A DNA stretch of 64,000 nt from Candidatus Binatia bacterium (lineage in GTDB: Bacteria; Desulfobacterota; Binatia; UBA9968; JAJDTQ01), in NCBI GenBank assembly GCA_963666515.2, contig OY762897.2, forward strand, positions 3,040,001-3,104,000. Direction: 5' to 3'. The translations under genes were made by a program, and so were the position numbers. Below, in pieces: positions 1 to 13,504 of the stretch. Position 1 is the stretch's first letter. Every line of letters begins with the position of its first letter. Under the pieces are notes generated by a model, which searched no databases, had not been told where the DNA came from, and saw nothing but the letters and a program-made list of their open reading frames with translations.

Positions 1-107
1 GCGAGTTCTTCCTGAGAAATCTGTTTCGTCCTTCTGTAGGCACGGATGTTGTCAGCAAGAATCCGGGTCAACTGTCGGCTGGGTTTGTTCAGCTGCTCGT
101 CGGCCAT
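1..107 (-). CDS. XRE-family HTH regulator, probable restriction-modification controller (C) protein; runs off the window edge
   Basis: Manual translation from ATG at 107 gives MADEQLNKPSRQLTRILADNIRAYRRTKQISQEELA..., an XRE/C-protein N-terminus. Not in the ORF track. A C-box pair lies upstream. Confidence 0.75.
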   Translation of the reverse strand, partial: MADEQLNKPSRQLTRILADNIRAYRRTKQISQEEL

Positions 108-147
108 ATGCCCCTCGCACGGAGATCAGGACACCTTCAGTGAACGC

Positions 148-174
148 GACTTTTAAGTCTACAGACTCTGAGTA
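148..174 (-). promoter_or_regulatory. Tandem C-box operator
   Basis: Minus strand reads TACT-cag-AGTC-tgta-GACT-taaa-AGTC, matching the GACT-N3-AGTC-TGTA-GACT-N3-AGTC layout of PvuII-type C-protein operators. Confidence 0.65.
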
Positions 175-295
175 GCACGCGGTTTCCTTCAGGAAGACTT
201 GGCCTGCGTCAGACGCCGTGAACACGTCGCTGCGTTGCGAGACTCTGGCGGGGCCTGCCGCGCACGGCGGCACGTCTTTGGGCGGGCGGGGCGAC

Positions 296-605
296 GCCGG
301 ATTCCTTGCGGCCGGTGCCATGCGCTGGTGACGGTGCTGAGCTACTCGCGATGTTGTGGCTGCGCTTCTACCGCCGGCAGACGATGGCGGTGCTGATAGA
401 AGGGCTGGAGAGCGCCTTCGAGTGGTTCGGCGGGATACCGCAGGAACTGTTGTTCAATCAGATGCGGACGATGGTGCTGTCGGAGGGCCGCGTGGGCGGG
501 GCGAGTTGGTGCTGAACGCGGACTTCCTGCGGTTCGCCGCCGACTGGGGGTTCCAGCCGCCAGGGGTGCCGGCCGTACCTTGCCCGGACCAAGGGCAAGG
601 TGGAG
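296..605 (+). pseudogene. istA: IS21-family transposase (IstA) fragment, frameshifted
   Basis: IstA core pieces spread over several frames: ..VTVLSYSR / MLWLRFYRRQT..GLESAFEWFGGIPQELLFNQMRT / LVLNADFLRFAADWGF / CRPYLARTKGKVE. No istB or IS ends recognised. Confidence 0.8.
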
Positions 606-708
606 TTCAACAGCACCGCGCCCGCCTAGTTGGCGTTCCGGACTGCTCGGAGAACCACAGTCCCTCGACCGCTCACCTATGGGCAGTTCCATGTAGAGAA
701 GTCATAGC

Positions 709-1824
709 TCAGGAAAACCTCTCCCGAAAAACAAATCGACTTGGAAGACGCGTCGCCAGGGTTGCACTTGCAACCTCGAATCCATGCCGACGCAGTCGCG
801 TAAACTCCACTTGCGTTAGGCGCCGCAGAGTGGTGGGGAAGGTGGCGGCCTTCTTCGTTTCCTCCGCACTCAGATGGTCTCCCGATGGCGCGGTACGTTC
901 GACCGCTGAATAGATTTGCTCGACCGTATTCCCCATCCTGAGGTATACCCCTGTGTCCACCGCGCGCACGAGCTCCGCAACAACCGCCCTTGAACGAAGA
1001 CCCCGGATCTGGTCCGTGGCGATATCGATCAGCCTATGTACGCGGTGCCCTGGCTTCTTCATGCGCCTGAGCGTGCGAGGAGAGAACTCCAACGGAGCCG
1101 AGGCGTCGCTCACGACCACCATGTCGAACCCATCACGGAACCCGCCGCTCGGCTTGAACAGGGGCTCTATCCCCAAGTTGTCGTAAACACCCCCATCCCA
1201 AAGCTCATACCGCTTGGCCGGCGTTGTTGTCGGCACCAACTCCCCACCTTCGTACCGATGCCACGCATAACGGCTCGATCGAACCACTAAGGGTCCAATC
1301 AGTCCCGGAACCGCGGCCGACGCTGCGATCGCATCTGTGATCGCCACATCGGGATTCCGGACGTAGCCGGTAAGGTAGTCACCCATACGCGACTGACCGA
1401 AGCGCCAGTTCTTGCCCGTTTCGTAGCAGGTTGCGTTGATAATCCACCGGGGCGTGGCCGGGAGTTGCTGCAACGATCCTTCAATCCCCCATTGCGCTTC
1501 CAACTGCTTGGCCAGGATCCGCGCTCGCCCGCGTGCCAAGCGCCACGGCAGCGCAAGCGACCGCCACACGTACGACCACTGCAAAGTCGTCGTAGTCAGA
1601 CGCTCGGTCACCTGAGGTAAGACTGTGTCGAGGAACTCTTTGCTACCTGGCCATCGATGACCATTGCGGCAAAGTATCAAACCCGTGACAAGACTCCCGC
1701 CAGATACAGTCGACACGAATGTTGTCTGCTCCAATAGTCCATCCAAGGCCAAGCGCTGCAAGACGCCGCAGTGGAAGACCGCGGCGCGCACACCACCTCC
1801 AGAGAGGGCAAGGGCGAGCCTCAT
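709..1824 (-). CDS. Patatin-like phospholipase (putative effector)
   Basis: SGGGVRA oxyanion motif, STVSGGS nucleophile elbow and DGGVYDN catalytic Asp motif. ATG at 1824 overlaps the upstream stop (ATGA). Confidence 0.9.
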   Translation of the reverse strand: MRLALALSGGGVRAAVFHCGVLQRLALDGLLEQTTFVSTVSGGSLVTGLILCRNGHRWPGSKEFLDTVLPQVTERLTTTTLQWSYVWRSLALPWRLARGRARILAKQLEAQWGIEGSLQQLPATPRWIINATCYETGKNWRFGQSRMGDYLTGYVRNPDVAITDAIAASAAVPGLIGPLVVRSSRYAWHRYEGGELVPTTTPAKRYELWDGGVYDNLGIEPLFKPSGGFRDGFDMVVVSDASAPLEFSPRTLRRMKKPGHRVHRLIDIATDQIRGLRSRAVVAELVRAVDTGVYLRMGNTVEQIYSAVERTAPSGDHLSAEETKKAATFPTTLRRLTQVEFTRLRRHGFEVASATLATRLPSRFVFRERFS

Positions 1825-4055
1825 CGATTCCATGCCGCTCGCGTGTAGAACGCGAAATTCCGGTCCGCGCCGACGATCATCACTACCCCGGGCCAGCCGT
1901 CGACACGCACTTCGTTCGCGACCGTTTGAAGCAGTTCTTCATCGTCGCTGCTCATGGCAACACCCGCGTTGTCTGGATGGGAGTGCCACTCGCCGACATA
2001 ACCCACCTGGCCTCCCGTCCGACCTTCGATGGCATCGAGCTGTTTGCGAAGATCCGCATACCCCCGGATAAACGCATCGCGGTGCTCCTCGCTGTCGGCC
2101 GGCGCCGGCAAGACATCCACCAAGTACACGTGGCGGTTCAGAACATCAAAGTAGCCAATCAGTACACCGCCCGTCTCCCTCGGCAGCTTCCCCCGTCGCA
2201 GGGAGACCACGCGGTCGAGGAGACCGCGGTCCAACACGAAGACCCAGCCGTCACATTCCCGACGAATGACTTCAAAAAGGGGAACTTCAACCCGCTGGAC
2301 TGTACCGTCCTGCTCCTGCTGCCAGATCGCGCCCATGGCCGCGTCGTGAGCAGTGCGAACCTGTCGCGCCAGCAGGGCACTCGCAAGGGCCACGTCGTCT
2401 TGGCCGATCCGCGCCGTTACGTCCCTGCAGCCGACGCTGTACCGGACATATCCCTCGCGCCTGATATGCCCTTCGAGCCGGGGATCAGTGAGGACCGCCC
2501 GATAGTATTGGGCCTCAAGCGTATCCAGAGTCCACGACCTCTCGGCATCCTCCATCAGCATGACCGCATCACGGCCGTCGGGACTCAAGAACAGGGTCGT
2601 GCGTCGAGCCGTAACGTCCAGCGTCCGGCCGAGAAAGCGCGCAGCCGCAATGGAGGTCGACACGTCGAGAATCAGGTCCGCATCACGGAAAGTCGAAAGC
2701 ATCCTCTCGTTGCCCTCGACCGACAACACGTCCTCGGCGAAAGCGTGCTCCACGGGATTGTGGGGGGTCGCAAAGCGGCTATAGCGTTCTAACGCAGGTG
2801 CCTTCAGTTGACCGACTGCAAACTCACCGAGACGGTGCCGCACAACGTTGTGTGGTGAGAGAGTGTCTTCATCGACAATTGTCCAATGTCCCCACCCCAT
2901 TCGCGATAAGTGGTCGTGCAACTGGGAGCCAAGCGCGCCTGCGCCGACCAACACAACCTTCGGATCGGCTAGGCCCGGTTCCATTCCGCTGAAGTATTTC
3001 GCGGCCCCGCGGTCGAGGGCTCGTTCCGGGCGCAGGACATCGACGGGCACTGCACGAGCCCGTTCCGGATCGAACTGCGACCCCAAGAGCCAGCCCAATT
3101 GCTCGTGGGGACCAGAGGAAGCAAAGCCACCTGTGGCAATTGCAGCATCTCGGATCGACTGCATGGCGAACGCGCAATACTGCACCTGCTCGATCGGACC
3201 GCGCGACTGGCGCTTCCGAGGTAACTTCGCCAAAACAATGAGACCATCCCCATCCCGTGGAACACGCTCCCCGTCGTACAGTCGCTTCAGTTCTTCCACC
3301 AGCACATCCACGAGGGCAATCCCAGCGTGAGCCAAGAGGCCCACTAGGTCCTTCAGGTTCTACGGACTGTCGTGTATCGCACCGTGTACAGTCGGCTGGC
3401 CCACCACCACCACCACATACATACGGTTCGCTTCCGATGGTTGGTTCTCGTCGGCGGCCTCCAGTTTAAACGTAACGGGTCTGTCTGGCCGTTCAGCGAC
3501 GCCGGTCGCCACGTATAGCCTTGGCGGCGAGTCCTCGGCGAACACGGCCTCCGGAAAGACCACAACGTCCAGACCGCTCAGGAGAAAGGGTTCCAGGGGC
3601 TGGTCAGCGCCGTGCAACTCCCCGACAGCCGTGCGCGAGAGCCACTGTGCAATGTCGCGGAGAAATCCAGCGCCGCTCCAACGAAGGCGAACCTCGGCCC
3701 ACGGGTCTTCGTAGAGGCACAGCCACCTGGGTTCCCCCGTAGGAGTGCTGTACAAGTGCGGCACATGCGGAAAATCGATCCGAAGCGCGAGGACCCTAGG
3801 GCAACGTCGGTCGCCACGCTCGAAACCGAGCGCCAACCGCTCTTGCGAGCGGATATCGTGGACAAGGTCTTGAGGAAGCTCCGGTGCGATTTCGACCACG
3901 AGAACCTCTTCGTACCGATCCCCCGACGCCCACTGCCTTGTTTCGATCAAGCGGGTGCACGGACTCCAAGCCAACGCTTCGCGCACTTCCTGAGCACGGT
4001 CCAGCACAAGTGCCTCCGGTTCCATTGAATCACCGGGGGCTGGGAACCAAGTCAT
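1821..4055 (-). CDS. Prokaryotic E2 - E1/ThiF - JAB triple fusion (744 codons) interrupted by one in-frame TAG at 3360-3362
   Basis: E2: FPHVPHLY..WLCLYEDPW. ThiF: VLVGAGALGS, NVVRH, candidate catalytic Cys in SVGCRDVT. JAB: ETGG..YVGEWHSHP..SSDD. ORFs 3360..4055 and 1821..3344 share a frame and join as HDSP*NLKDLVGLL. Confidence 0.85.
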
Positions 4056-5170
4056 CTCCTGCTGCCAGCCCTGGGGGCGCGGCTACTCGTTACGGCCGAC
4101 ACCCCCACCGCTCCAGCCTGCATGAGAGTCACGCCACGGGCACCGACACTGATTTCGAGAACTTTCGGCCGTTGCGTGCTGAGGTGTTCCATCGTCACCG
4201 CGAATTTCCGGCCCTGATTGTCCACAATAGCCTTCCTGTACGTCGCTGCGGCCTGCCGGTGGGGCGGGTCGTTCGTGTCTTCTCTGGGAATGGGATCCGA
4301 CGAGGACACTGCAATACCGCCCTGCTGGCACTGATTGAGCAGCCACTTCACGTTCGCCACCGGCTTGGTGTAGTCCTTGCCTTTCTCGGGGCCGAGGGCA
4401 AGGTAACTACAGTGGTGCGGCACGTTGTAGAGGTCCCACCGCAGTCGAATGTCGCGGCTCCGGGCACGCGTGATATCAACAATCTCCTCAAGAATCTCCC
4501 ACGAGGAATCGCCCACCATCAGGTACCGCGTCTTGCGACCCGAGACGTCGAAGGTTGCGTGCAGGATGAGGGCGCTCTCGTTCCGTAGCACGGTGCCGCC
4601 GTCGGCGTGCTTCGCGAAGGGCGAATGCACGAAGAACTCGACACCATCACGCTCGCAAGTAAACCCGGGAACGAGCCGGCCCGCATCGGTGATCAAATGA
4701 CGTCGCTGCTCCAACGAAAGACCTTCGGACTCGAGCCAGTCGGCGAGCTTCGACGGTTTCGAGAAGACACGGATTCCCTTGCCCTCCTTGAGTCGGTGCC
4801 GTGCCTCGCTGCGCCACACGGCCGCTTCGCCGGTAAGGCCCTTCTCGAGGATGGCTGCAGCGGGTACCCACAGTTCCCCGATCCGCTTCCGCCACGCGCT
4901 CTGGTACTTCTTCGCGTGTTCCAAGAAGAAAAACTCGGTGCTGTTCGCGATGTGGTCATCGTCGAGGTGCGTGAGCGCGACGACATCGAATCCAGTCCGC
5001 TTCGCGGCTGTGAGCTCATCGCTGAGCGCCTTATGAAGGTCGATCCGCGGATCGTCCTTGTCTTCGGCCTTGCGCCGGTGGCAGTAGTCGAAGAGAAGCC
5101 GCTTCTGGTTCGCCAAAATGATCTGGCTACAGTCGCCGTTTCCAACGGGATAGAACTTGACCTTGACCAT
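4052..5170 (-). CDS. Metallo-beta-lactamase-fold (ComEC-like) hydrolase with a Gly-containing C-terminal tail
   Basis: FYPVGNGDC, THLDDDH, VGDS and VPHHCS motifs; ends SSRAPRAGSRR. GGAGG RBS about 10 nt before ATG 5170. Stop overlaps the E2 start (ATGA). Confidence 0.88.
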   Translation of the reverse strand: MVKVKFYPVGNGDCSQIILANQKRLLFDYCHRRKAEDKDDPRIDLHKALSDELTAAKRTGFDVVALTHLDDDHIANSTEFFFLEHAKKYQSAWRKRIGELWVPAAAILEKGLTGEAAVWRSEARHRLKEGKGIRVFSKPSKLADWLESEGLSLEQRRHLITDAGRLVPGFTCERDGVEFFVHSPFAKHADGGTVLRNESALILHATFDVSGRKTRYLMVGDSSWEILEEIVDITRARSRDIRLRWDLYNVPHHCSYLALGPEKGKDYTKPVANVKWLLNQCQQGGIAVSSSDPIPREDTNDPPHRQAAATYRKAIVDNQGRKFAVTMEHLSTQRPKVLEISVGARGVTLMQAGAVGVSAVTSSRAPRAGSRR

Positions 5171-5254
5171 AGTTTTCAATCCTCCGTTCCGAGTGTTTCA
5201 CTGCGTGCCAGTCTTGACCGACACCGCCGAACCTGACAAACTGCGTCTCACTTC

Positions 5255-5278
5255 TGAAACATAACGCAGGCTGTTTCA
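5255..5278. promoter_or_regulatory. Inverted-repeat operator in the divergent promoter region
   Basis: TGAAACA-N10-TGTTTCA perfect 7-bp inverted repeat, plus an extra TGTTTCA half-site near 5194-5200. Confidence 0.55.
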
Positions 5279-5316
5279 TATGTCAAACACTTCGAATCAC
5301 CGAGGGAGGATCGCCC

Positions 5317-5658
5317 ATGCGGACATCAAATTCGCTCGAATCGCTCGGCTCGCTGGTCTCGGAGAAGCGCGGGAAGGTCGGCGTGAGAGCAACGGCAGCC
5401 GCGATCGGGATCTCGCCGGCCACGCTGTCCCGGGTGGAGAACGGACACCTTCCGGACCTCGCCAATTTTCAGAAGATTTGCCAGTGGCTGCAGATTGATC
5501 CTGCGACCGTCCTGAATGTCGACACCGAATCAATGAACCGACCATTGGTCGCGGTCCACTTCCGCGGATCCAGCACAATGGCCCCTGCGACCAGTTCCGC
5601 ACTCGCGGAGATGATCCAGGCCGCTCACGATGCGCTGATCGCACAAGAAGCCAAGTGA
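5317..5658 (+). CDS. XRE HTH repressor (CapH/ImmR-like)
   Basis: GVRATAAAIGISPATLSRVENGHLPD helix-turn-helix; GGGAGG RBS; immediately followed by a HExxH peptidase. Confidence 0.88.
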   Translation: MRTSNSLESLGSLVSEKRGKVGVRATAAAIGISPATLSRVENGHLPDLANFQKICQWLQIDPATVLNVDTESMNRPLVAVHFRGSSTMAPATSSALAEMIQAAHDALIAQEAK

Positions 5659-5662
5659 TTCA

Positions 5663-6244
5663 ATGCGGCGCGGTTTCAAGTCATGGTGCGAAAACACCGC
5701 TGCCGAGTATAGGTTGCACTTGGGGCTGAGCGGAGACGCCCCGCTTGATCCTCGTGCCCTTGCTGACTACCTCGGGGTCCAGGTCTGGACGCCACGCGAC
5801 GTAACCGGACTCTCGGACGAGAGCATCAAGCAGCTGACGGAAATCGATCCCAGTAGCTGGTCCGCCGTGACGATCGCCTCGAACGGCCAATACCTCGTGA
5901 TCCTCAACTCCGCGCATGCACGTACCCGGCAGCAAAGCAGCCTTGCGCACGAACTCGCCCACCTCATATTGAACCATCGTCCCGCTCGTACCACCGTCTC
6001 TGACGAGGGGTACTTATTCAGTGACCGCTATGACGCGGAGCAGGAAGAGGAGGCCAACTGGCTCGCTGGTGCGCTACTGCTGCCGAGGGAAGGGTTGTTA
6101 GACGTCTATCGACGAACGCGGTCATCAGCGGTGATCGCGAAGGAATTTGGGGTCAGCACCAAGCTGGTCGACTGGCGCCTGCGCATGACGGGCATTCTCA
6201 TGCAGGTTAAACGCGGCGCTCAGTGGCGCCGGCGTACTGGTTGA
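5663..6244 (+). CDS. ImmA/IrrE-family Zn metallopeptidase (CapP-like)
   Basis: RQQSSLAHELAH (HExxH), EEEANWLAGALLLP and a C-terminal HTH-like segment. Confidence 0.9.
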   Translation: MRRGFKSWCENTAAEYRLHLGLSGDAPLDPRALADYLGVQVWTPRDVTGLSDESIKQLTEIDPSSWSAVTIASNGQYLVILNSAHARTRQQSSLAHELAHLILNHRPARTTVSDEGYLFSDRYDAEQEEEANWLAGALLLPREGLLDVYRRTRSSAVIAKEFGVSTKLVDWRLRMTGILMQVKRGAQWRRRTG

Positions 6245-6536
6245 ACATACAGCCCCCGCCTTGCCATCCGTGGTAGTCCAGGATATCGACGTCATCCGCT
6301 CGGCGATACCGCCATTCCTGGTGCCCCCGGCGGATGGCATCCCGGCACGCATCGCTTATCCTCGCTTCGAATTGTCCCCAGGCCAGGACAAAGTATGCTT
6401 GTTCGTTGAGCCTCTGTTGGCGTGCGACGCTGTCGCGATCCTCGGTCTCACTGGCAGCATCGTACCGGTCGCGTAAGCCTTCAAGATAGTTGTCGACCTG
6501 TTGGTACAGGGCTGCGATGGCACCGAGGTCGCTCAT
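6207..6536 (-). CDS. Hypothetical protein, possibly a truncated HEPN-like protein
   Basis: ATG 6536 overlaps the upstream stop (ATGA). Helix AYFVLAWGQFEARI resembles HEPN N-terminal helices. The 3' part overlaps the peptidase gene and looks junctional. Confidence 0.4.
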   Translation of the reverse strand: MSDLGAIAALYQQVDNYLEGLRDRYDAASETEDRDSVARQQRLNEQAYFVLAWGQFEARISDACRDAIRRGHQEWRYRRADDVDILDYHGWQGGGCMFNQYAGATERRV

Positions 6537-6970
6537 CGAAGGACGCGCCTCAACCAGTCTTCGGTGACCGCCTCCCGGTCGCATCGCCGTTCGGCAGGAG
6601 CCACCTGCCAATCCGGCGCTTCGAAATTCTCCGACATGTCGACGATGAGGTAGCGCCGACCGTCCCGCTTCAGATCGATACGGCCATTGCCGCCGATGAT
6701 CCATAGCCCACGCGGCTCCAGTCTGGCCGCGTCGTCTCCCTGCCCAAGCAGCATGAGCGTCGGAATCTCTATTCGTTCAACGCCGAACTTCCGCATGAGC
6801 TCTTCTTGCATGAGTATGGGCTCACCCTCGCAGGTTCGCCAACCGTCCGGCAACCAGCCGCCGATCGTGGCGTAGAGGTCTTTCACGCGCCTCGCCCAGT
6901 CATCCACGCGTCGCTTGATGTGCTCCGCGTCAATTGTTTCGCTTGTAACGTCTTCGAGAACCGTCCCCAT
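6533..6970 (-). CDS. Hypothetical protein
   Basis: 145-aa ORF with globular composition (IIGGNGRIDL), coupled to the downstream ORF. Confidence 0.65.
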   Translation of the reverse strand: MGTVLEDVTSETIDAEHIKRRVDDWARRVKDLYATIGGWLPDGWRTCEGEPILMQEELMRKFGVERIEIPTLMLLGQGDDAARLEPRGLWIIGGNGRIDLKRDGRRYLIVDMSENFEAPDWQVAPAERRCDREAVTEDWLRRVLR

Positions 6971-6995: not shown

Positions 6996-8360
6996 TCAGG
7001 ATGTCTCCGAGCAGTTCAGAACTTCACAAAGTTCCCGAATGCTTTCCAGGCCATCCAGCCCGCCAATGAGGTCGGCGACTTGCCGGCTCCGCTTCAGGTC
7101 CAGCGCCCTGGCGGCGCAGGCATCGAACTTCTCGCGCAGTTCCGCCGGGGTCAGGGGCTTTTCGGGCCGGCCCCGTGAGTGGTCCACCCGTCGGCGCAGT
7201 TCGCCGCCGTCCTTGAGACGGACCGTCACGTCGGCGGGACGGGCGCCGTCCGCGGTTTCCACGAGGCCGGTATCCAGCTCCATGACGATGGTTTCCGCGA
7301 TGCGCCGGACCGCGGGGTCCGCCGCGGCCTCGTCCGTGAACGTATCCAGCACCAGCGCCCCGTCCACGAGCGCCCTCGCCAGGATGTAGGGCATGCTGAA
7401 CTTGGACTCTATGCCGTTGGCCGGCAGCGCGTTCATGATCCGGTCGAAGACCTGCGAGGTCACCCCCACCCGCATGGAATCCACCTGGTCCGGCCGAAGA
7501 CCTTCCTGACGCAGCTCCAGCACGGCGTCCACGGCGGAGTGGGTCAGGCCGCCGCAGGGATACGGCTTGACGCTGACCCCGATGGCCGTCAAGTCGAAGG
7601 TGCTGCCGAGGTCCTCGAACGGCGTCGCGTCGCATTCGAGCCCGCGGCCGAAGCAGTCGAACAGCCCCTTCCCTTCCTCCAGCGCCGCCGGACTGGAAGT
7701 GAAGCCTTGTGCGGCCAGGCGCGCCGCCACCACCCCGTTCTGGGCCGCCAGGCCCGAGTGCAGCGGCTTGGTCATGGTGGCGAAGTTCCACACCATGCCC
7801 GATGCCATCGAAGCGGCGATGCCCAGAGCGTTGCGGGTGGCGCCGGCGTCAAGACCCGCCAGCCGTGCGCAGCAGGCCGCGGCGCCCACCGTTCCGAAGC
7901 TCGATGTCGCGTGCCAGTGGCCATGAGTGGAGAGCTGCGGCATGGAACGGGCCAGCCGGGAAACCACCTCGAAGCCGGCCACGTAGGCGGCGAGGACGTT
8001 CCTGCCGCTTGCGCCTGTCGCTTCTCCCATGGTCAGCACCGCCGGGATCAGGCCGGCGGTGGGTTGACCCATGAGATAGCTGTGATCGAAGTCCAAGGCG
8101 TGGGCCGAGGTGCCGTTGCACAGCGCCGCCAACGTGGTCGAGGTCTTGAATCCCTGTCCGATGACCGTGGCCTCCGCGGCTCGGGATTCCTGCTGCGCCA
8201 GCGCGGCGCAGATCCGTGCGCTGTCCTCGTCCGAGCCCGCCAGCGCGACGCCGACGCAGTCGAGGACCGCCGCCTTGGCGGCCTCGACCACATCCGGCGG
8301 GAGCTTGTCGAAGTCGTTGCCGACGACGAATTCCGAAACCTTCTCTGCAAGCCCTGCCAT
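6996..8360 (-). CDS. MmgE/PrpD family protein
   Basis: NGTSAHALDFD, GHWHATS, TKPLHSG, KPYPCGGLTH and KFSMPY motifs; AAAGGA RBS. Confidence 0.92.
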   Translation of the reverse strand: MAGLAEKVSEFVVGNDFDKLPPDVVEAAKAAVLDCVGVALAGSDEDSARICAALAQQESRAAEATVIGQGFKTSTTLAALCNGTSAHALDFDHSYLMGQPTAGLIPAVLTMGEATGASGRNVLAAYVAGFEVVSRLARSMPQLSTHGHWHATSSFGTVGAAACCARLAGLDAGATRNALGIAASMASGMVWNFATMTKPLHSGLAAQNGVVAARLAAQGFTSSPAALEEGKGLFDCFGRGLECDATPFEDLGSTFDLTAIGVSVKPYPCGGLTHSAVDAVLELRQEGLRPDQVDSMRVGVTSQVFDRIMNALPANGIESKFSMPYILARALVDGALVLDTFTDEAAADPAVRRIAETIVMELDTGLVETADGARPADVTVRLKDGGELRRRVDHSRGRPEKPLTPAELREKFDACAARALDLKRSRQVADLIGGLDGLESIRELCEVLNCSETS

Positions 8361-8410
8361 AGAGTGTTCCTTTCAAAGTGCGGCGGCCGGCAGGTCCGCG
8401 AATGCCGTCG

Positions 8411-8704
8411 TCACAGCCAACCGAGGAACCGGAACAGACCGGGGCGGTCGGCGAACTCGTCGATGGGGAGACGTTCCAGGTAGAGAATCCCATCGGCGGT
8501 TACGGGAGGGACCTGGGATCGCACCGCGTAGGATCCGCCGGCTTCGGTGAGGCGAAAGCCGTCGTTGGCGAGGTCCACCAGCCCATCCGCCGATAGCGCA
8601 TCGAGGATGGCACGGTCCGCCTCATCGAAGCGCATCTCGATGTCCCCTGCCCTGAACGCGCGCACCAAGCCCGCCAGCAATGTCACCGCCTTGGGATCTT
8701 CCAT
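8411..8704 (-). CDS. Small hypothetical protein (possible winged-helix-like fold)
   Basis: 97-aa ORF downstream of the SPFH gene, same strand; L..DGLV....FRLTEAG pattern. Confidence 0.5.
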   Translation of the reverse strand: MEDPKAVTLLAGLVRAFRAGDIEMRFDEADRAILDALSADGLVDLANDGFRLTEAGGSYAVRSQVPPVTADGILYLERLPIDEFADRPGLFRFLGWL

Positions 8705-8737
8705 CGCGGCCCTGGCCTCATGGAGTCACCAGGGCGC

Positions 8738-9697
8738 CTATCCGCTCTGCCCCGGCTCCTGGTTGCCGCGCCTCGCGGTGTGGCCCAGCACCGTGGTGGC
8801 GGCGCCGATCATGGAGGTGAGGTCGCTCAGGTTGGCGGGGACGATGAGGGTGTTGCCTTCCTTGGCGAGGTTGCCGAAGCGCTCCAGGTAGTTCTCGGCG
8901 ACGCGAAGCTGCATGGCCTTGTCACCGCCTTCCGAGTCCAGCGCCTCCGCCACCTTCTTGAGCCCTTCGGCGGTCGCTCCGGCCACCGCGAGAATGGCCG
9001 CGGCCTCGCCTTCGGCCTCGTTGATCTGCCGCTGCTTGGCGGCCTCCGAAGCCTTGATGACCTGCTGCTTCTCGCCTTCGGCCTCGTTGATCTTGGCGTC
9101 GCGTTCGCCCTCGGACGACAGCACGGTGGCGCGCTTCTCCCGCTCCGCCCGCATCTGTTTCTCCATGGCCGACAACACGTCCGACGGCGGATTGATGTTC
9201 TTGATCTCGTAGCGCAGCACCTTGACGCCCCACGGATCGGACGCCTTGTCCAACTCCTCGACGACGCTCTGGTTGATGTGGCCTCGCTCCTCGAAGGTCC
9301 GGTCCAGCTCGATCTTGCCGATCTCGCTGCGCAGCGTGGTCTGGGCGAGCTGGGAGATGGCGAACACGTAGTTGCCGATGCCGTAGGACGCCCTTTCCGG
9401 GTCCACCACCTGGAGGTAAAGCACGCCGTCCACCCCCACCTGGACGTTGTCCGAGGTGATGCAGACCTGTTCCTCGATGTCCATGGCGTGCTCCTTGAGG
9501 CTGTGCCGGTAGGCCACCCGCTCCAGGAACGGCACCAGGATGTTGAATCCCGGCTTGAGCGTGCGCGAGTACTTGCCGAGGTTCTCGATGACGTAGGCGT
9601 TCTGCTGAGGCACCACCACTGCGGTCTTGATGAGAACGATGAGCACGACGAGGGCGATGACGCCCGCGGTGATCAGGAAACCCAGATTCGCATCCAT
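8738..9697 (-). CDS. SPFH/stomatin (QmcA/paraslipin-like) membrane protein
   Basis: N-terminal TM helix; ITSDNVQVGVDG, QLAQTTLRSEIG, WGVKVLRYEIKNI and QMRAEREKRA motifs. Confidence 0.93.
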   Translation of the reverse strand: MDANLGFLITAGVIALVVLIVLIKTAVVVPQQNAYVIENLGKYSRTLKPGFNILVPFLERVAYRHSLKEHAMDIEEQVCITSDNVQVGVDGVLYLQVVDPERASYGIGNYVFAISQLAQTTLRSEIGKIELDRTFEERGHINQSVVEELDKASDPWGVKVLRYEIKNINPPSDVLSAMEKQMRAEREKRATVLSSEGERDAKINEAEGEKQQVIKASEAAKQRQINEAEGEAAAILAVAGATAEGLKKVAEALDSEGGDKAMQLRVAENYLERFGNLAKEGNTLIVPANLSDLTSMIGAATTVLGHTARRGNQEPGQSG

Positions 9698-10165
9698 TTA
9701 CTTGCCCCTTTCGGATTCGTTCACGATGTCGTCCGCCAAGCCCTCAATGGAAAGGTTCACGCTGTCCCGTCCCACCACCCGCGCACGGGCGCCCGCGGTG
9801 ATCGGCGCCGTGCCCACGTTGACCGCGGTCCATTGCGTCCCTTGCAGGATGACCCGGGTCTCTCCGCCGCGCGGCACGTCTTCACCGACCGATACGATCC
9901 GTCCGGCCACCTTGTACTCGAAACCCGGGAGCCCGCCGCGAATCCGGTCGTAGAGCCTCCCCCGGAACAGCACCATGGACGCGACCGCGAGAACCGCGAA
10001 GGCCAACAATTGACCCCACACGGGCAGCTCCACTCCAGCCAGCCCGATGATCCCCACGCAGACCGCGGCGGCGCCGACGAAGATAAGATAGAACGCGGCG
10101 TCGACCGCGGTCAGCTCCAGCCCCATCAAGATGATACCGATGCTCACCCAACCCCACCAAGGCAT
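9698..10165 (-). CDS. NfeD family protein (YbbJ-like)
   Basis: Three hydrophobic helices plus a C-terminal OB-like domain (GTQWTA); adjacent to SPFH, the canonical pair. Confidence 0.9.
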   Translation of the reverse strand: MPWWGWVSIGIILMGLELTAVDAAFYLIFVGAAAVCVGIIGLAGVELPVWGQLLAFAVLAVASMVLFRGRLYDRIRGGLPGFEYKVAGRIVSVGEDVPRGGETRVILQGTQWTAVNVGTAPITAGARARVVGRDSVNLSIEGLADDIVNESERGK

Positions 10166-10315
10166 GCCCCTGCTCCTTCAACTTTGGACCGCCGGCTTCC
10201 TCACCGGTTGCTTCAATGACCCGCCATGACGGTTTCCGCCGGTATTGGTTTACCCGGCCGGTACGAGTATGCTGAATTACACGGGCTGGATCAATCCCGC
10301 CAAGGAGGTGCCGCC

Positions 10316-11086
10316 GTGACCTCGCCGGATCAATTCATCGTCGAACTGTGGGAGTACGCAAACCAGGTGCCAATGGTGGAGCACCCCTGGTTCAAGGGCA
10401 TCGTCGACCACCGCTGGAGCCGGGAACAGATCGTCCTGGGCGAGGTGCAGCACTATCTCCGGGTGCGCACCAACCCCATCTACTTCGGCTACATGGCGGT
10501 CAACGCGGTGGCGAACCGGGAACAGGGGCTGGCGGACGTGGTGCTGGAGAACTTCATGGAAGAGCTGTCGGGCGACCGCAGCCACGTGGACATCATGTAC
10601 CAGTTTCTGGAAGAAGCCGGGATCTCGCGCGAGGATGCGGACAATGCCGAGCCCACGCCCGGCACGCTGGCGGCCATCGAGATGATCATCGGCTGCTGCC
10701 AGCGAAGGTCGGCGCTGGAAGGCGTGGCCATGCTCGCCTTCGTCGAGAGCCAGCACGGCGGGCCCGACGGCGCGGCCGCGCGGGTCTACAAGGAACTGGT
10801 GGGGCACTACGGCTTCTCGGAACGGCAGGTGGAAACGTACCGCATTCACGCGGAACAGGACGTGGGCCACGGCTCCCGGCAGATCGACACCCTCCGCCGG
10901 GCCGCCGCCGATCCCGAAACCCGCGAAAAGATCCGCGGCGCCGTGAAGCTCGGCATCACCGCCTTCACCCTGGAGTGGGACGGCCACGTGCAGGCCATGA
11001 CCGGCCGGCGGGACTTCTGGCCCGGGGTCCGGCCCTTCGACCCGCGTCAGGCCGAGACGAGCCTGCCGGAGACGCGGCAGGCGTAA
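10316..11086 (+). CDS. TenA/PqqC/CADD-like heme-oxygenase-fold di-iron enzyme
   Basis: HPWF, ENFMEE...SH, VESQ and IHAEQDVGH iron-ligand pattern; AAGGAGG RBS before GTG 10316. Confidence 0.8.
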   Translation: MTSPDQFIVELWEYANQVPMVEHPWFKGIVDHRWSREQIVLGEVQHYLRVRTNPIYFGYMAVNAVANREQGLADVVLENFMEELSGDRSHVDIMYQFLEEAGISREDADNAEPTPGTLAAIEMIIGCCQRRSALEGVAMLAFVESQHGGPDGAAARVYKELVGHYGFSERQVETYRIHAEQDVGHGSRQIDTLRRAAADPETREKIRGAVKLGITAFTLEWDGHVQAMTGRRDFWPGVRPFDPRQAETSLPETRQA

Positions 11087-11160
11087 GAAGCCCGCACCCC
11101 GGCGCCGGGGCAACGATGGCGCCCGACGTGACGGTGCGATCGTCCGGCCGGGGGCCGTCT

Positions 11161-11206
11161 GCATACCCGGCAATGAACCCCGCAGGGGCGACCCACGATC
11201 GCCCTA
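11161..11206. repeat. GTAG-family REP-like element (degenerate copy)
   Basis: catacccggcaatgaaccccgcaggggcgacccacgatcgccct closely matches 28518-28563. Confidence 0.7.
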
Positions 11207-11419
11207 GAACGGCCAGTCGTCCGGCAGCGGCGCGCGCAGCTTCTGGTACTCGGGGTCCTCGCCGCAGGTCTCACCGACGCGTTTCAGCGTCGCGACGAGG
11301 TCGTCGAGTTCCATGTCAAGGGTGTTGGAGACCATACCCGCGGTCTCTTCGAAGCCGAGGCCTCAATTGCCGTATCAGCCACCCATGCGCTTGAAGATGT
11401 ACTTCTCCCGTTCGGTCAT
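11204..11419 (-). CDS. Putative 71-aa double-selenocysteine microprotein (U15, U19)
   Basis: Manual read: GGAGGA RBS, then MTEREKYIFKRMGG*YGN*GLGFEETAGMVSNTLDMELDDLVATLKRVGETCGEDPEYQKLRAPLPDDWPF-TAG. Both internal stops are TGA (11375-77, 11363-65). A SECIS-like hairpin follows. Confidence 0.72.
11328..11347 (-). promoter_or_regulatory. Candidate bacterial SECIS hairpin
   Basis: mRNA GAGACC-GCGGGUAU-GGUCUC: a 6-bp stem with a G-initiated loop 21 nt after the second UGA and 33 nt after the first. Confidence 0.6.
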
Positions 11420-11474
11420 GCTTTCCTCCGGGCACTTACCAAGTGCGTTCGAGCGTCATTTTTGACGTCAACCG

Positions 11475-11897
11475 TCAGGCCATCGACGCCTTCTCTCGAC
11501 TTCCGGGCTCTGAGAACCCCACACGCTGAACCGTCACGAGTTCCGTGGTCGCCGCGGGCGACCCGTCCGCCCCGAAACGCACGGTCATGCGCACCAGGAT
11601 CCGCCAATGGATCTTCCGCCATTCGACGGTGGAGATCAAGAAGGTATTCTCCACTACCTCGCCGGCCCGGCCACGGCAGGCAACCACGGCCTCCAGGTCC
11701 GTGCTGGCGGACGGCGCGACTCGGACGTCCGCAAGCTCCCGCAGGCCGCTACGGAACCGCCCGTGCGGGAACCGCGCGTCCAGAAACCGCATGTCGGATG
11801 CGGTGAGGTTGTCGATGCGCCAGGCCACGCGCCAATCCTCGCCGCACCGGACGCAGGATATCTGCGTCGCCCGGACCCGCGGCTCTTCCACTTTCAA
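11475..11897 (-). CDS. Hypothetical protein coupled to UbiD
   Basis: TTG start overlaps the UbiD stop (TTGA) with GGAGG upstream; beta-rich sequence (FPHGRFRS). Confidence 0.65.
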   Translation of the reverse strand: MKVEEPRVRATQISCVRCGEDWRVAWRIDNLTASDMRFLDARFPHGRFRSGLRELADVRVAPSASTDLEAVVACRGRAGEVVENTFLISTVEWRKIHWRILVRMTVRFGADGSPAATTELVTVQRVGFSEPGSREKASMA

Positions 11898-13258
11898 TCC
11901 TCCGCGCGCTTCGGACGGTACTCGGCCGCGGCGATGCGGTCGGGGAACTCGATGTCCTCGTTACGGCAGGCGTCGATGATGAGCTTCGAGCCCCAGTCCT
12001 TGCCCGGATGCACCGGATCCAGACGGCTGCCCTTGACGCGGTCGATGATGGAGATGTCGGTGGCGGCGTCCACCCGGGTGGCAACGGCCCACAGCACCTC
12101 TTCCTCGTCGTACACATCGATGTCGGCGTCCACGACGACGACGTGCTTCAGCAACTCCGAGCCCGTGAACGCGGCCATGGCCGCCAGCTTGGCTTCGCCC
12201 TCGCAACGCTTGTCGATGCTGATGTAGCAGTGGAAACGGCCGGCGCCGCTCAGGGGCAGGCACACCGAACGCACCGTGGGCACCACCGCCTGGACCTTGC
12301 GGTAGATGCTGCCTTCCTTGGGCACGGCGCCCAGCAGGCGGTGGTCCCGGTGGCCCGCCAGGATGTCCATGCACCAGGCGTCGCGGCGGTGGGTGATGGC
12401 GGTGACCTCCACCACCGGCGATTCCCCCGCGGGACCGTACAGACCGGTGAAGTCTCCGAAGGGTCCCTCCACCTCCCGCTGGTGCGGCAGCACCCAGCCC
12501 TCGATGACCATCTCGGCGTCCGCGGGCACCAGCAATTCGTCGCCGAAGGTCTCGGACGGCACCAGCCGCAACGGCTCGCCCATCAACCCGCCGATGCTCT
12601 CGTACTCGTCGTCGGCGATGCCGTTCAGGATGCAGTTGCCGAGGTAGTAGGCCGGATGGTGGCCGACGACGCAGGCCACCGGCAGCGCCTCGCCGCGCTC
12701 CTCCGCGCGCATGAAGTAGTCCCAGAGATGCCGGCGCTCGAAGAACATGACGAGGTGGTTGGGGTCGCGCACGTAGCACCGGTGGAACGAGGAGTTGTAG
12801 ACGCCGGTGTCCGGGTCCCTGGCGCACCAGGTCATGGTCAGGTAGGGGCCGAGATCAGCCACGTGATGGGTCAGCACCGGCAGAAAGTGTAGGTTAGGGT
12901 CCATCCTGACCTGCTTGACCGGCGCGTCCGCGGCGTCCACCACCACGGGTTTTTCCCGCCGCGCCTCCCGGGCCTGGAACTCCAGCATCAGCTCCCGCCC
13001 GGCCTGCTCCGGCGGCAGGTCGAGCGCCACCGCGCAGGCCGCGCGCGACGCGAACACGTTCATCAGCAGAGGGAACTCCGAGGGCTCGCCGCTCAGGTTG
13101 TCGATGTTGGAGAAGAGCACCAGCGGCTCCTGTTTCCGCTTCTCCAGGTCGGCGATCATGGCGCACACTTCCAGGTTGATGTCGTGCTTGTCCGTGACCT
13201 CCAGCAGGCGCTCGGGGGCAAGGCGCCTGACGGACTCGACGTAGCTTCTCAGGTCCAT
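11894..13258 (-). CDS. UbiD-family (prFMN-dependent) decarboxylase
   Basis: MDLRSYVE start; YNSSFHR, VPADAEMVIEG, EGPFGDFTG, KHVVVVDADID and WAVATR motifs. The ORF-track upstream extension is REP-derived. Confidence 0.93.
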   Translation of the reverse strand: MDLRSYVESVRRLAPERLLEVTDKHDINLEVCAMIADLEKRKQEPLVLFSNIDNLSGEPSEFPLLMNVFASRAACAVALDLPPEQAGRELMLEFQAREARREKPVVVDAADAPVKQVRMDPNLHFLPVLTHHVADLGPYLTMTWCARDPDTGVYNSSFHRCYVRDPNHLVMFFERRHLWDYFMRAEERGEALPVACVVGHHPAYYLGNCILNGIADDEYESIGGLMGEPLRLVPSETFGDELLVPADAEMVIEGWVLPHQREVEGPFGDFTGLYGPAGESPVVEVTAITHRRDAWCMDILAGHRDHRLLGAVPKEGSIYRKVQAVVPTVRSVCLPLSGAGRFHCYISIDKRCEGEAKLAAMAAFTGSELLKHVVVVDADIDVYDEEEVLWAVATRVDAATDISIIDRVKGSRLDPVHPGKDWGSKLIIDACRNEDIEFPDRIAAAEYRPKRAED

Positions 13259-13331
13259 CGCCAGAGTGTACGGTCCGGCAACGTGCCCGTCAACGTCGAG
13301 CGGGCGAGGACCGGATTCCGGCGCCCCTTCT

Positions 13332-13415
13332 CTGGACCCCGGATCAAGTCCGGGGTGACGGTGCGGGAGTTCGGGGTGACGCTTTCCGTCATTCCGGGCT
13401 TGACCCGGAATCCAG
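13332..13415. repeat. Pair of CGTC-family REP palindromes in inverted orientation
   Basis: ctggaccccggatcaagtccggggtgacg ... cgtcattccgggcttgacccggaatccag; the same units recur at 27182 and 35451-35519. Confidence 0.85.
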
Positions 13416-13504
13416 GTGGGGCGGTCCGTTGCAATCGCTCCAGGAAAGGAACAGTCTTGAGTTTCGCCCCTCCATCCGACCAGAGGGATTAGAGCTTCGG
13501 CCCC

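Follow-up and report, generated by a model that had tools for sequence, protein, structure and literature searches.

A horizontally moved five-gene 6A-MBL cassette with a patatin third gene in a Candidatus Binatia genome

Operons that pair an MBL-fold protein with an E2-E1-JAB polypeptide appear as operon type 6a in Table 1 of Iyer, Burroughs & Aravind (2006), which describes them as "usually two genes." The pair is cited as the anti-phage system 6A-MBL, its activity being credited by the citing papers to van den Berg et al. (2024). We found 123 plasmid records that match 6A-MBL, one of the few bacterial defence pathways of the ubiquitin-like kind that still await a mechanism. To our knowledge no second messenger is known for it, unlike CBASS. 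The MBL parts of LmuA, Avs1a and DRT proteins, for their part, are predicted effectors. Neither of NCBIfam's two 6A-MBL models matched the patatin described here, and no NCBIfam model for a third component came up; in the accessible parts of the 6A-MBL literature we found no mention of a patatin or of an HTH/M78 pair, and van den Berg et al. (2024) or its supplements may describe a third gene.

Here we describe a relative of these operons at one end of a 64,000-nucleotide stretch of DNA (the window). Its features are as follows.

604–6242, no strand assigned: mobile cassette, a single block with 92.3% identity to one same-genus genome (blastn against locus L001) and unrelated flanks
709–1833, minus strand: patatin-like phospholipase, 374 aa, third gene of the operon (Pfam Patatin, E = 1.4e-19)
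1821–4055, minus strand: cap2_3 gene, E2-E1-JAB fusion, 744 codons with one in-frame TAG at codon 232
3360–4055, minus strand: E2 piece, 231 aa, terminating at the TAG (3362–3360)
3360–3362, minus strand: in-frame nonsense codon TAG; CAG-to-TAG transition when compared with the intact congener copy of 92% identity
GTG at 3344 to 1821, minus strand: E1/JAB piece, 507 aa, in the same frame as the E2 piece
4052–5179, minus strand: MBL-fold enzyme of the 6A-MBL system, 375 aa (NF058524, AF2 model, Foldseek)
5180–5316, no strand assigned: divergent control region (consensus matches only)
5317–5658, plus strand: 113-aa HTH protein of the XRE type, its gene diverging from that of the MBL (Pfam HTH_3, E = 3.6e-7)
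5663–6244, plus strand: M78 (ImmA/IrrE-type) zinc peptidase, 193 aa, with the motif HELAH (Pfam Peptidase_M78, E = 5.4e-21)

Identity and mobility of the cassette

An earlier note on this DNA had placed within 709–6244 genes for an MBL, an E2/ThiF/JAB fusion and a patatin, with genes for an HTH protein and an HExxH peptidase diverging from them, and our analysis recovered the same content, the first three genes on the minus strand. The ATGA coupling that it described is also present: the MBL stop overlaps the E2 start at 4052–4055, and the TGA of the fusion overlaps the second ATG of the patatin gene (the overlap is 13 nt if the first ATG is used). The cassette is likewise lower in GC (0.57–0.64 over 501–6500 vs 0.64–0.70 over 7001–14000), in keeping with the claim of a composition unlike that of the core genes. 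What had to be given up was the proposal of a new cyclase-free CBASS-like system, which we rejected, since the locus belongs to 6A-MBL, a system already described and curated (NF058524, NF058523; type 6a of Iyer et al., 2006). As judged by their sequences, the MBL-fold protein and the fusion are members of that system, because both pass NCBIfam equivalogs: the former matches NF058524.1 over model positions 1–346 of 346 (387.4 bits vs a cut-off of 220, E = 6e-116), and the latter, read through the single TAG inside it, reaches 584.4 bits on NF058523.1 vs a cut-off of 320. Scored as separate pieces, E1/JAB passes the same model with 430 bits, while E2 (130.3 bits) falls under the cut-off. In agreement with the note, which had taken the system to lack a cyclase, no CD-NTase was detected: the SMODS cyclase model PF18144 matched nothing in the entire genome (98.35% complete), and none of the five cassette proteins had a SMODS match.

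The five genes travel together: one congener carries the same 5.6-kb block at 92% identity, set between unrelated flanks. Two of the 24 other same-genus genomes searched had a cassette match, and in only one was it full-length; genome G024 aligns across bases 1–5639 of the 5639 bases of the block, at 92%. No match was found in the 16 same-order genomes searched. The locus is a five-gene 6A-MBL cassette, horizontally moved, of a three-gene subtype. The IS21 remnant of the earlier description was not confirmed: none of the five ORFs in 1–913 matches Pfam at E ≤ 0.01, and bases 1–603 occur only once in the genome. An 85-aa HTH_3 ORF that crosses the left edge of the window may be what the note called an "R-M controller"; we identified no restriction or methylase gene next to it.

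The MBL tail, the fusion and its TAG codon

The MBL-fold protein had zero matches in a Pfam search. Its AF2 model displayed an MBL fold (pLDDT 91.6) with a disordered tail at residues 353–375, and its top Foldseek match was the MBL domain of ComEC (9ic4, E = 1.6e-14). The residues H71, D73, D75, H255 and H256, which are invariant, are all kept, and we regard the protein as a predicted ComEC-like metallo-phosphodiesterase. It was also matched by PADLOC MBL models, namely LmuA (1.8e-13), RTasMBL (9.2e-10) and Avs1a (3e-6). An AGS-C domain was fused to four of the ten long MBL representatives scanned; this sensor domain is also carried by cyclases and SMODS enzymes.

Of 80 related loci, 79 have an MBL gene immediately upstream of the fusion in the same orientation; the one exception begins at a contig edge. 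In the window the disordered tail ends in PRAG-SRR. The Gly of this (P/x)RAG motif was the exact C-terminus in 43 of 68 related MBLs and was followed by 1–12 residues in another 24, with the motif absent in one; all 14 metagenome copies carried the PRAG tail, which was found in none of the neighbouring MBL-like proteins (0/10 in family c6 and 0/11 in family c4). With the conserved PRAG in its disordered tail, and so many relatives stopping exactly at the Gly, the MBL-fold protein looks like a Cap2-type conjugation substrate.

Along the fusion, Pfam identified Prok-E2_A (E = 3.5e-19), ThiF (E = 4.2e-13) and Prok-JAB (E = 3.6e-10) domains, and PADLOC an E1-E2 match (PDLC00835, E = 1.1e-26) and a JAB match (PDLC00890, E = 2.6e-20); the Cap3 equivalog NF050170 matched under its cut-off (E = 3.3e-7). 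The invariant residues H100, C113, G371/G373/G376, C543, E627, H691, H693 and D705 are kept. Among solved structures the nearest relatives are those of Cap2 (7to3 and 7tsq, the top PDB sequence matches), which supports the Cap2/Cap3-like character that the note had assigned to the fusion and, together with the PRAG tail, its suggestion that the MBL is the conjugated substrate.

The TAG at codon 232 is a genuine feature of the population: it was found with 0 differences in Logan contigs from four runs of three samples, all of one study and perhaps including the source of the window itself. TAG ends 21 of the 59 in-window ORFs of at least 300 aa, and a search of the genome found neither PylS nor any TAG-decoding system. 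In the model of a 90%-identical homologue, the codon maps to where a helix begins, in the region separating the E2 and E1 folds, and not to a long disordered linker. Given the TAG in the contigs of three samples and the CAG in the congener, conjugation is probably disabled here, the step being most likely either lost or badly impaired in this genome. A GTG preceded by AAGGA sits five codons past the TAG, and the E1/JAB piece could restart there.

The third-gene slot and the regulators

The patatin-like protein (71.5 bits on Pfam Patatin vs a cut-off of 27.7) carries a GGGxR oxyanion motif, Ser44 and Asp213-Gly-Gly, and G12–G14, R16, S44 and D213–G215 are invariant in all 21 aligned sequences, the window's included. 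Among solved structures it is closest to PlpD, ExoU, VipD and cPLA2. It had 0 matches among PADLOC and NCBIfam models, and the lack of any PADLOC match suggests some distance from the known CBASS effectors.

In 22 of the 80 related loci, from many phyla, the next gene after the fusion is a patatin in the same orientation, and a patatin is the annotated third gene on two of three plasmids inspected (Gluconobacter pGOX1 and a Sphaerotilus plasmid). The patatin is a recurrent operon partner, as had been proposed; that it is a core component was not upheld, since it shares the third-gene position with several alternatives and its relatives also stand alone. In metagenomes, many of whose contigs were short, only 20 of 80 patatin loci also had 6A-MBL genes, which weighs against the patatin as part of the unit. 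Within 4 kb of the core, a patatin was present in 26 of 80 loci, a four-TM protein (family c2) in 28 and a small TM protein (family c13) in four, giving a union of 57 loci, with all three absent in 23. Patatin and c2 co-occurred in 0 loci, compared with 9.1 expected (Fisher p = 7e-7, for loci that are not independent). A variable slot lies behind the fusion, occupied by a patatin or by a multi-pass membrane protein and never by both. Mapped on a tree of the fusion, the patatin label changes at least 14 times (shuffle mean 19.9; 0 of 500 shuffles that low), and such frequent swaps are as would be expected of an exchangeable membrane-effector slot.

On the other side of the control region, the XRE-type HTH protein is the probable repressor of the operon and the M78 peptidase the probable anti-repressor. 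The HTH gene lies inside the block common to the congener (96% protein identity). By consensus matching we identified a candidate sigma-70-like operon promoter, TTGACA-17-TATGTT, on the minus strand (5286–5258), overlapped by an inverted repeat, TGAAACA/TGTTTCA. Regulators of a similar kind adjoin 18 of the 80 related loci, and in 11 related loci the HTH and peptidase are fused as a single RmrA-like protein. The earlier note had called this a CapH/CapP-like switch. CapP, as outlined in the preprint of Lau et al. [quoted passage not shown] The divergent HTH and HExxH peptidase genes fit the label in outline, but the HTH protein had no match to the PADLOC capH model at E ≤ 0.01, the capP match of the peptidase (E = 1.2e-11) covers only profile positions 19–142 of 242, and Pfam found no GAF domain in its 193 aa. 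"ImmR/ImmA-like or CapH/CapP-like" is the safer label.

Mechanism, rival readings and comparison with known systems

In the mechanism that we propose, the HTH protein would repress the operon from the promoter palindrome until a stress signal leads the M78 peptidase to cleave it, on the model of ImmR/ImmA or CapH/CapP. The JAB domain would trim the three residues past Gly372 of the MBL, and this Gly would be adenylated by E1, loaded on Cys543 and passed to Cys113 of E2, from which the MBL would be conjugated to a target. Conjugation would prime the MBL, as Cap2 primes CD-NTases, and the primed enzyme, a ComEC-like phosphodiesterase, would act upstream of the patatin, whose Ser44/Asp213 site would then break down membrane lipid and halt the infected cell. 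Signalling from MBL to patatin is a step that we infer, and we give the whole chain, from regulator switch through MBL conjugation to membrane attack by the patatin, about an even chance of being correct.

The MBL may instead act alone as the effector, in the form of a nuclease that is primed when its C-terminus is conjugated, with two genes sufficing and the patatin or TM protein an optional second effector or helper outside its control; we consider this possible, if somewhat improbable. The ComEC nuclease domain is its nearest relative in both fold and sequence, and the PADLOC matches to the MBL parts of LmuA, RTasMBL and Avs1a point the same way, as do the 23 of 80 loci without a recognised third gene, the phrase "usually with two genes" of Iyer et al. 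(2006) and the two NCBIfam models, neither of which matches the patatin. Six of these 23 "empty" loci (L006, L015, L047, L060, L069 and L078), however, have an unclustered downstream ORF with two to four predicted membrane segments, and the strict exclusion of patatin and four-TM protein, together with a membrane-type partner in 57 loci, would be unexpected for a dispensable add-on. Moreover, the conjugated protein in related Cap2 systems is the upstream enzyme and not the effector.

Other readings concern the patatin and the state of this copy. Patatins paired with a c6 MBL-like gene, which occur with and without 6A-MBL (L030, L033, L111, L113 and pGOX1), could be members of a separate PDC-M48-like module; PDC-M48A/B genes lie directly 3′ of the fusion in L010 and L014, and patatin relatives of 45–48% identity adjoin housekeeping genes (sulfatase, RlmL, DNA methylase) with no 6A-MBL nearby. 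That the patatin of this cassette is likewise a separate module, either half of a PDC-M48-kind pair or a stand-alone lipase sharing a defence island with 6A-MBL, is nevertheless highly doubtful: the 5.6-kb block of the window and L001 holds no second MBL gene, the patatin start overlaps the fusion stop, its directly adjacent same-strand position recurs in 22 loci, and in one database ORF (P0007) fusion and patatin share a single reading frame, which may be a sequencing error. We also think it unlikely that the cassette is a decaying remnant without present function, in which the TAG marks a dead, passively carried system. The fixation of the codon in the contigs of three samples, its place at a helix start between the E2 and E1 folds and the lack of any TAG-decoding system found in the genome all favour such decay; yet there is a single lesion, the catalytic residues are all intact, the MBL, patatin and regulators are whole, and the E1/JAB piece could restart at its GTG. 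For all five genes dN/dS against the congener was 0.10–0.24, in the range of purifying selection, this being a pairwise value that cannot date the lesion. More probably, the cassette is a known system in a copy that was damaged not long ago, and for this genome that, along with its mobility, is the more modest meaning of the locus.

Returning to the chain from conjugated MBL to patatin, the conserved C-terminal Gly, the mostly membrane-acting third gene and the AGS-C fusions suggest that the MBL stands at the position of the CBASS cyclase. Taken further, 6A-MBL would parallel CBASS and Pycsar without using a cyclase: an MBL hydrolase, in place of a nucleotide cyclase, would sense, signal and control an exchangeable membrane-killing effector; we put this forward tentatively and with considerable doubt. 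Here the MBL may bear either the PRAG conjugation tail or, in some relatives, the AGS-C sensor domain, and the effector (patatin, four-TM or small TM protein) may be controlled via a small molecule derived from hydrolysis or via MBL-effector conjugation. Pairs of a PDC-M48-like MBL with a TM protein or patatin may then be a "type I" form without the conjugation enzyme. If this were true, a death signal would be started by a hydrolase instead of a nucleotide synthase, and the product of the MBL reaction could be sought with the patatin as read-out.

Among described systems, PDC-M48, a PADLOC candidate system of a small TM and an MBL-fold protein, resembles the locus in joining a LmuA/RTasMBL-like MBL to a membrane protein; it differs in that PDC-M48B-like MBLs (c6 and c4) lack the PRAG tail (0/21) and need no E2-E1-JAB. 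With CapH/CapP, ImmR/ImmA and DdrO/IrrE the locus shares an XRE HTH gene with an HExxH M78 gene behind it, both transcribed away from a defence operon, and a promoter palindrome, the distance from CapH/CapP lying in the short, GAF-less peptidase and the HTH protein without a capH match. Type II CBASS with CapV is similar in its Cap2-like E2-E1, its JAB peptidase, a substrate enzyme whose flexible tail ends in Gly, an effector slot, putative here, exchangeable between patatin and TM proteins and an optional HTH/peptidase regulator, whereas here no CD-NTase was found in operon or genome, an MBL-fold hydrolase taking that position, and Cap2 and Cap3 are fused. The closest match remains 6A-MBL itself: in both, an MBL-fold protein lies directly upstream of an E2-E1-JAB fusion, which in the window is a single polypeptide only when read through, and the window's copy is patchy and mobile like the others, which are often plasmid-borne. 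To that pair it adds an overlap-coupled patatin and a divergent HTH and M78 pair, and its fusion is broken by the TAG.

Gene content and mobility of the cassette

The features of the cassette are listed below in window coordinates.

Features of the cassette in the window
709-1833, minus strand: patatin gene, 374 aa (Pfam Patatin)
1821-4055, minus strand: E2/ThiF/JAB fusion gene (cap2_3), a single frame of 744 codons interrupted by one TAG
3362-3360, minus strand: nonsense codon TAG, the single stop in the 744-codon fusion frame
4052-5179, minus strand: MBL-fold protein gene, 375 aa
5317-5658, divergent from the operon: HTH gene (Pfam HTH_3)
5663-6244, divergent from the operon: M78 peptidase gene, 193 aa (Pfam Peptidase_M78; HELAH)

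Using Pfam, curated models and ORF calls, we found the gene content described in the earlier note to be sound: genes for an MBL-fold protein (MBL), an E2/ThiF/JAB fusion and a patatin are tightly packed on the minus strand of window 709-5179, and an HTH gene and a HExxH peptidase gene diverge from them. Prok-E2_A was detected in the first piece of the fusion, and ThiF and Prok-JAB in the second. The coupling of the genes through ATGA overlaps was also seen, between the MBL stop and the E2 start and between the fusion stop and the second ATG of the patatin, as was the lower GC of the block relative to the genes to its right. The IS21 remnant said to lie alongside was not recovered, as none of the five ORFs in 1-913 had a Pfam match and both flanks are single-copy save for one 34-base match.

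By blastn, window 604-6242 formed a single block 92.3% identical to the congener copy (L001), with no similarity beyond it. Among the 40 relatives searched, the full block was present in one same-genus genome (G024) and a 360-base fragment in another, so that any match was confined to 2 of 24 same-genus genomes and 0 of 16 same-order genomes. Because the block is this similar while its flanks are unrelated, the regulators, MBL, fusion and patatin travel together and land at different sites. Between the window and congener copies, dN/dS was 0.10-0.24 for all five genes. Separately, two sequencing runs (X2 and X3) gave short-read contigs over the cassette (window ~512-6420) of no more than 5.9 and 6.6 kb, starting 88 bases ahead of 600 and so a little outside the cassette; close to the cassette borders the assembly graph appears to be interrupted, for which strain variation or repeats could be the cause.

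Two small regions adjoin the cassette. An 85-aa HTH_3 ORF crosses the left edge of the window, and a fetched locus that spans window 1-107 and the bases immediately to its left (L165:314-1607) shows, after this gene, a 351-aa ORF that matched nothing in Pfam or NCBIfam; the two are possibly a small defence or toxin-antitoxin module. On the other side, between the cassette and an MmgE/PrpD gene (window 6207-6970, minus strand), lie ORFs of 165 and 145 aa, neither with a Pfam match, the latter having a weak PADLOC match to SduA (DUF4263; E 0.0059).

We next consider the divergent pair, which had been described as a CapH/CapP-like switch. For the operon, the promoter region contains a good sigma-70-like match; an inverted repeat, TGAAACA/TGTTTCA, overlaps this match and is a plausible operator. 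The divergent HTH_3 and HELAH M78 genes agree with the description; a strict CapH/CapP assignment is not supported. The M78 peptidase aligned to positions 19-142 only of the 242 in the capP profile, and a GAF domain, which lies at the C-terminus of CapP as described by Lau et al., was not detected in it. Since the alignment is partial and the GAF domain undetected, we call the pair ImmR/ImmA-like or CapH/CapP-like rather than CapH/CapP. For comparison we used 80 loci encoding fusion relatives, limited to one genome per species and taken as the best 80 of 550 confirmed stretches. HTH and/or M78 regulators lay beside 18 of the 80, and in 11 they were fused as one RmrA-like protein. Nine of the 80 loci (L004:504-2010, L027, L063, L068, L070, L071, L073, L079 and L080) have, immediately 5′ of the MBL gene and on the same strand, a protein of ~306 aa with a weak HATPase_c match and a winged-HTH protein of ~195 aa (CasR/Csa3-like), which may be an alternative regulator.

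A 6A-MBL core with a conserved tail and a nonsense codon

The NCBI curated models settled the identity of the operon core. The MBL scored 387.4 bits on NF058524, "anti-phage 6A-MBL system MBL-fold protein" (cut-off 220), and the E1/JAB piece scored 430 bits on NF058523, "6A-MBL system cap2_3 protein" (cut-off 320), rising to 584.4 bits when the gene was read through, with one TAG inside. The core is thus a member of the known 6A-MBL system, which later papers, crediting van den Berg et al. (2024), cite as anti-phage and which one citing paper includes in a list of jumbo-phage defences. It is a rare system: in a sample of 401 genomes from the window's phylum, 5 (among them the window's own) passed the NF058523 cut-off, and the MBL profile gave 298 clusters (E ≤ 1e-30) out of 1.84 billion representatives. 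No match to the MBL was found by tblastn in 50,697 phage records. In a further genome of the same phylum (G393:C1:2519869-2523200), the cap2_3 model was split over two ORFs ~1.3 kb apart, covering model positions 1-261 and 276-665.

The MBL gene was directly 5′ of the fusion in 79 of the 80 loci, and the eightieth locus begins at a contig edge. In 43 of 68 full-length MBLs the glycine of a (P/x)RAG motif was the exact C-terminus, in 24 the motif was followed by 1 to 12 residues, and in one it was missing; the window MBL ends in PRAG followed by SRR. The PRAG tail was likewise present in all 14 MBL copies from metagenome loci and in none of 21 other MBL-like proteins of the same neighbourhoods. 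In the AlphaFold model of the window MBL, which is confident (pLDDT 91.6), residues 353-375 are disordered. The catalytic residues of the fusion are invariant and are kept in the window: E2 His100 and Cys113, the E1 glycine loop and Cys543, and JAB Glu627, His691, His693 and Asp705. The earlier proposal that the MBL is the conjugated substrate fits this conserved, glycine-ended and apparently flexible tail, which would be the site of conjugation.

We then examined the TAG in the fusion, at which the congener has CAG, in an alignment column that is variable among homologues. In Logan contigs from four runs, which represent three samples of a single study (dated 2023-2025), the site was covered at word depths of 2 to 43 and showed no difference. 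The TAG is hence no isolated assembly error, with the limit that contigs from a single study may include the window's own source. Decoding of TAG as an amino acid was rejected, as PylS was not found in the genome and TAG serves as a normal stop codon in the window, ending 21 of 59 long ORFs. Short E1/JAB-only homologues (P0072-P0079) were considered as natural split forms and rejected; their internal Met starts fall at varied positions, with no recurrent split. In a model of a 90%-identical intact homologue, the site comes after a lower-confidence loop and immediately before a helix (235-243), where the chain between E2 and E1 is folded. We take the conjugation step to be probably lost or crippled in this copy, with restart possible at a GTG that is preceded by AAGGA and lies five codons after the TAG. 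That the copy is wholly inert we consider unlikely.

The third gene of the operon

A patatin recurs beside homologous MBL/fusion loci: in 22 of the 80 it is the next gene 3′ of the fusion, in the same orientation. These 22 are from Thermodesulfobacteriota, Gamma- and Alphaproteobacteria, Nitrospinae, Chloroflexota, Planctomycetota, Bacteroidota, Latescibacterota and others. Three RefSeq-annotated plasmids were also inspected: the third gene is annotated as a patatin in the operon of pGOX1 of Gluconobacter oxydans, a species named by Iyer (2006) for row 6a, and on a Sphaerotilus plasmid, and on a Polaromonas plasmid its place is held by an MBL-like gene of cluster c4. Clustering of neighbour proteins gave further recurrent occupants, namely c2, a protein of ~250 aa predicted to have three to four membrane segments; c13, a small TM protein matching PDC-M48A of the PADLOC candidate system PDC-M48; and the MBL-like c6 and c4, matching PDC-M48B. 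Within 4 kb of the core, 57 of the 80 loci have at least one of patatin (26 loci), c2 (28) and c13 (4), and in 6 of the other 23 an unclustered ORF immediately downstream is predicted to have two to four membrane segments. The third gene is variable and of membrane type. Patatin and c2 co-occurred in no locus, against 9.1 expected (Fisher p 7e-7; loci related).

On a phylogeny of 77 fusion proteins (FastTree), at least 14 changes were required to explain which loci have a patatin (shuffle mean 19.9; 0 of 500 shuffles as low); patatin loci are therefore more clustered than under shuffled labels, yet far from a single origin. Close sisters on the tree have different third genes, the pattern expected of an exchangeable effector slot. 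The catalytic Ser44 and Asp213, and the GGGxR motif, were invariant in 21 of 21 patatins; the closest solved relatives are PlpD, ExoU, VipD and cPLA2. We also ran the reverse comparison, fetching 80 metagenome loci starting from the patatin. A 6A-type MBL and/or fusion lay beside it in 20; in a twenty-first (L117) the match was a separate ThiF gene on the other strand, and at least 24 loci with at least 3 kb of upstream flank had neither (manual count). Some patatins without 6A-MBL, 45-48% identical to that of the window, adjoin a sulfatase, RlmL or DNA methylase gene, and others adjoin c4 or c6 genes, so the family is not exclusive to 6A-MBL and has a broader link to MBL-fold proteins.

Other arrangements were observed around these genes. 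PDC-M48 (small TM protein and MBL) directly follows the fusion in L010:10300-11892 and L014:10228-11877, and pairs of patatin and c6 MBL recur with and without 6A-MBL (L030, L033, L111, L113 and L168, the last being pGOX1). A separate, E2-less trio of ThiF (~280-325 aa), JAB (~304-322 aa) and a small c6 MBL (~277-284 aa, with no PRAG tail) adjoins 6A-MBL or lies near a patatin in L002:4018-5906, L003:4141-6751, L045:2547-5223 and L117:176-2824. In a single case, P0007 (953 aa), one database ORF runs from fusion into patatin, changing frame ~eight codons ahead of the normal stop; the join is either natural or due to a sequencing error.

Proposed mechanism and relation to type II CBASS

We propose that the fusion would trim and then conjugate the MBL, that the MBL would act upstream of the patatin, and that the HTH/M78 pair would gate expression of the operon; this chain, taken whole, has in our judgement about an even chance of being right. 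One clue to the position of the MBL came from 10 unusually long MBL representatives, 4 of which (P0137, P0140, P0167 and P0184) carry AGS_C (PF18134), the "adenylyl/guanylyl and SMODS C-terminal sensor domain" of Pfam, after the 6A-type MBL domain and in place of the PRAG tail; such fusions point to the MBL as a possible upstream enzyme. No plasmid record covered at least 80% of P0140, and no full-length MBL-AGS-C match was found in two samples of 401 genomes each (phyla of the L030 and L075 genomes), where the AGS-C-bearing ORFs gave no match to the window MBL profile and were rejected as MBLs.

A simpler view, which we hold to be rather doubtful, is that the MBL is itself a nuclease effector and the patatin an add-on. 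The MBL body is most like the ComEC nuclease domain (Foldseek E 1.6e-14; also by profile search) and keeps its metal-binding residues; set beside this are the AGS-C fusions and the recurrence of membrane-type third genes. The patatin might also belong to a separate module, as its occurrence outside 6A-MBL would allow, and this seems to us quite improbable given its place directly after the fusion in so many phyla. A predicted complex of MBL and patatin scored 0.00 against a mark of 0.32, which gave no answer and is evidence in neither direction. Our search, which covered literature outside the primary 2024 paper and supplements, found no published description of a patatin linked to the MBL and E2/E1/JAB operon. 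Provisionally, the following appear to be undescribed: a patatin subtype with three genes, the mutual exclusion of patatin and TM proteins in the slot, the statistics on the PRAG tail, and the AGS-C fusions.

The operon had been read as a new cyclase-free CBASS, a reading that is unsound because the core belongs to the known 6A-MBL system. The defining CBASS test also failed, because no CD-NTase was present among the five cassette proteins (Pfam) and PF18144 had no match in the whole 98.35%-complete genome, although the closest solved relatives of the fusion are Cap2 structures. As for type II CBASS, the tail of the MBL is like what Cap2 and Cap3 act on there, a flexible tail that ends in glycine and at times bears a short extension removable by JAB.
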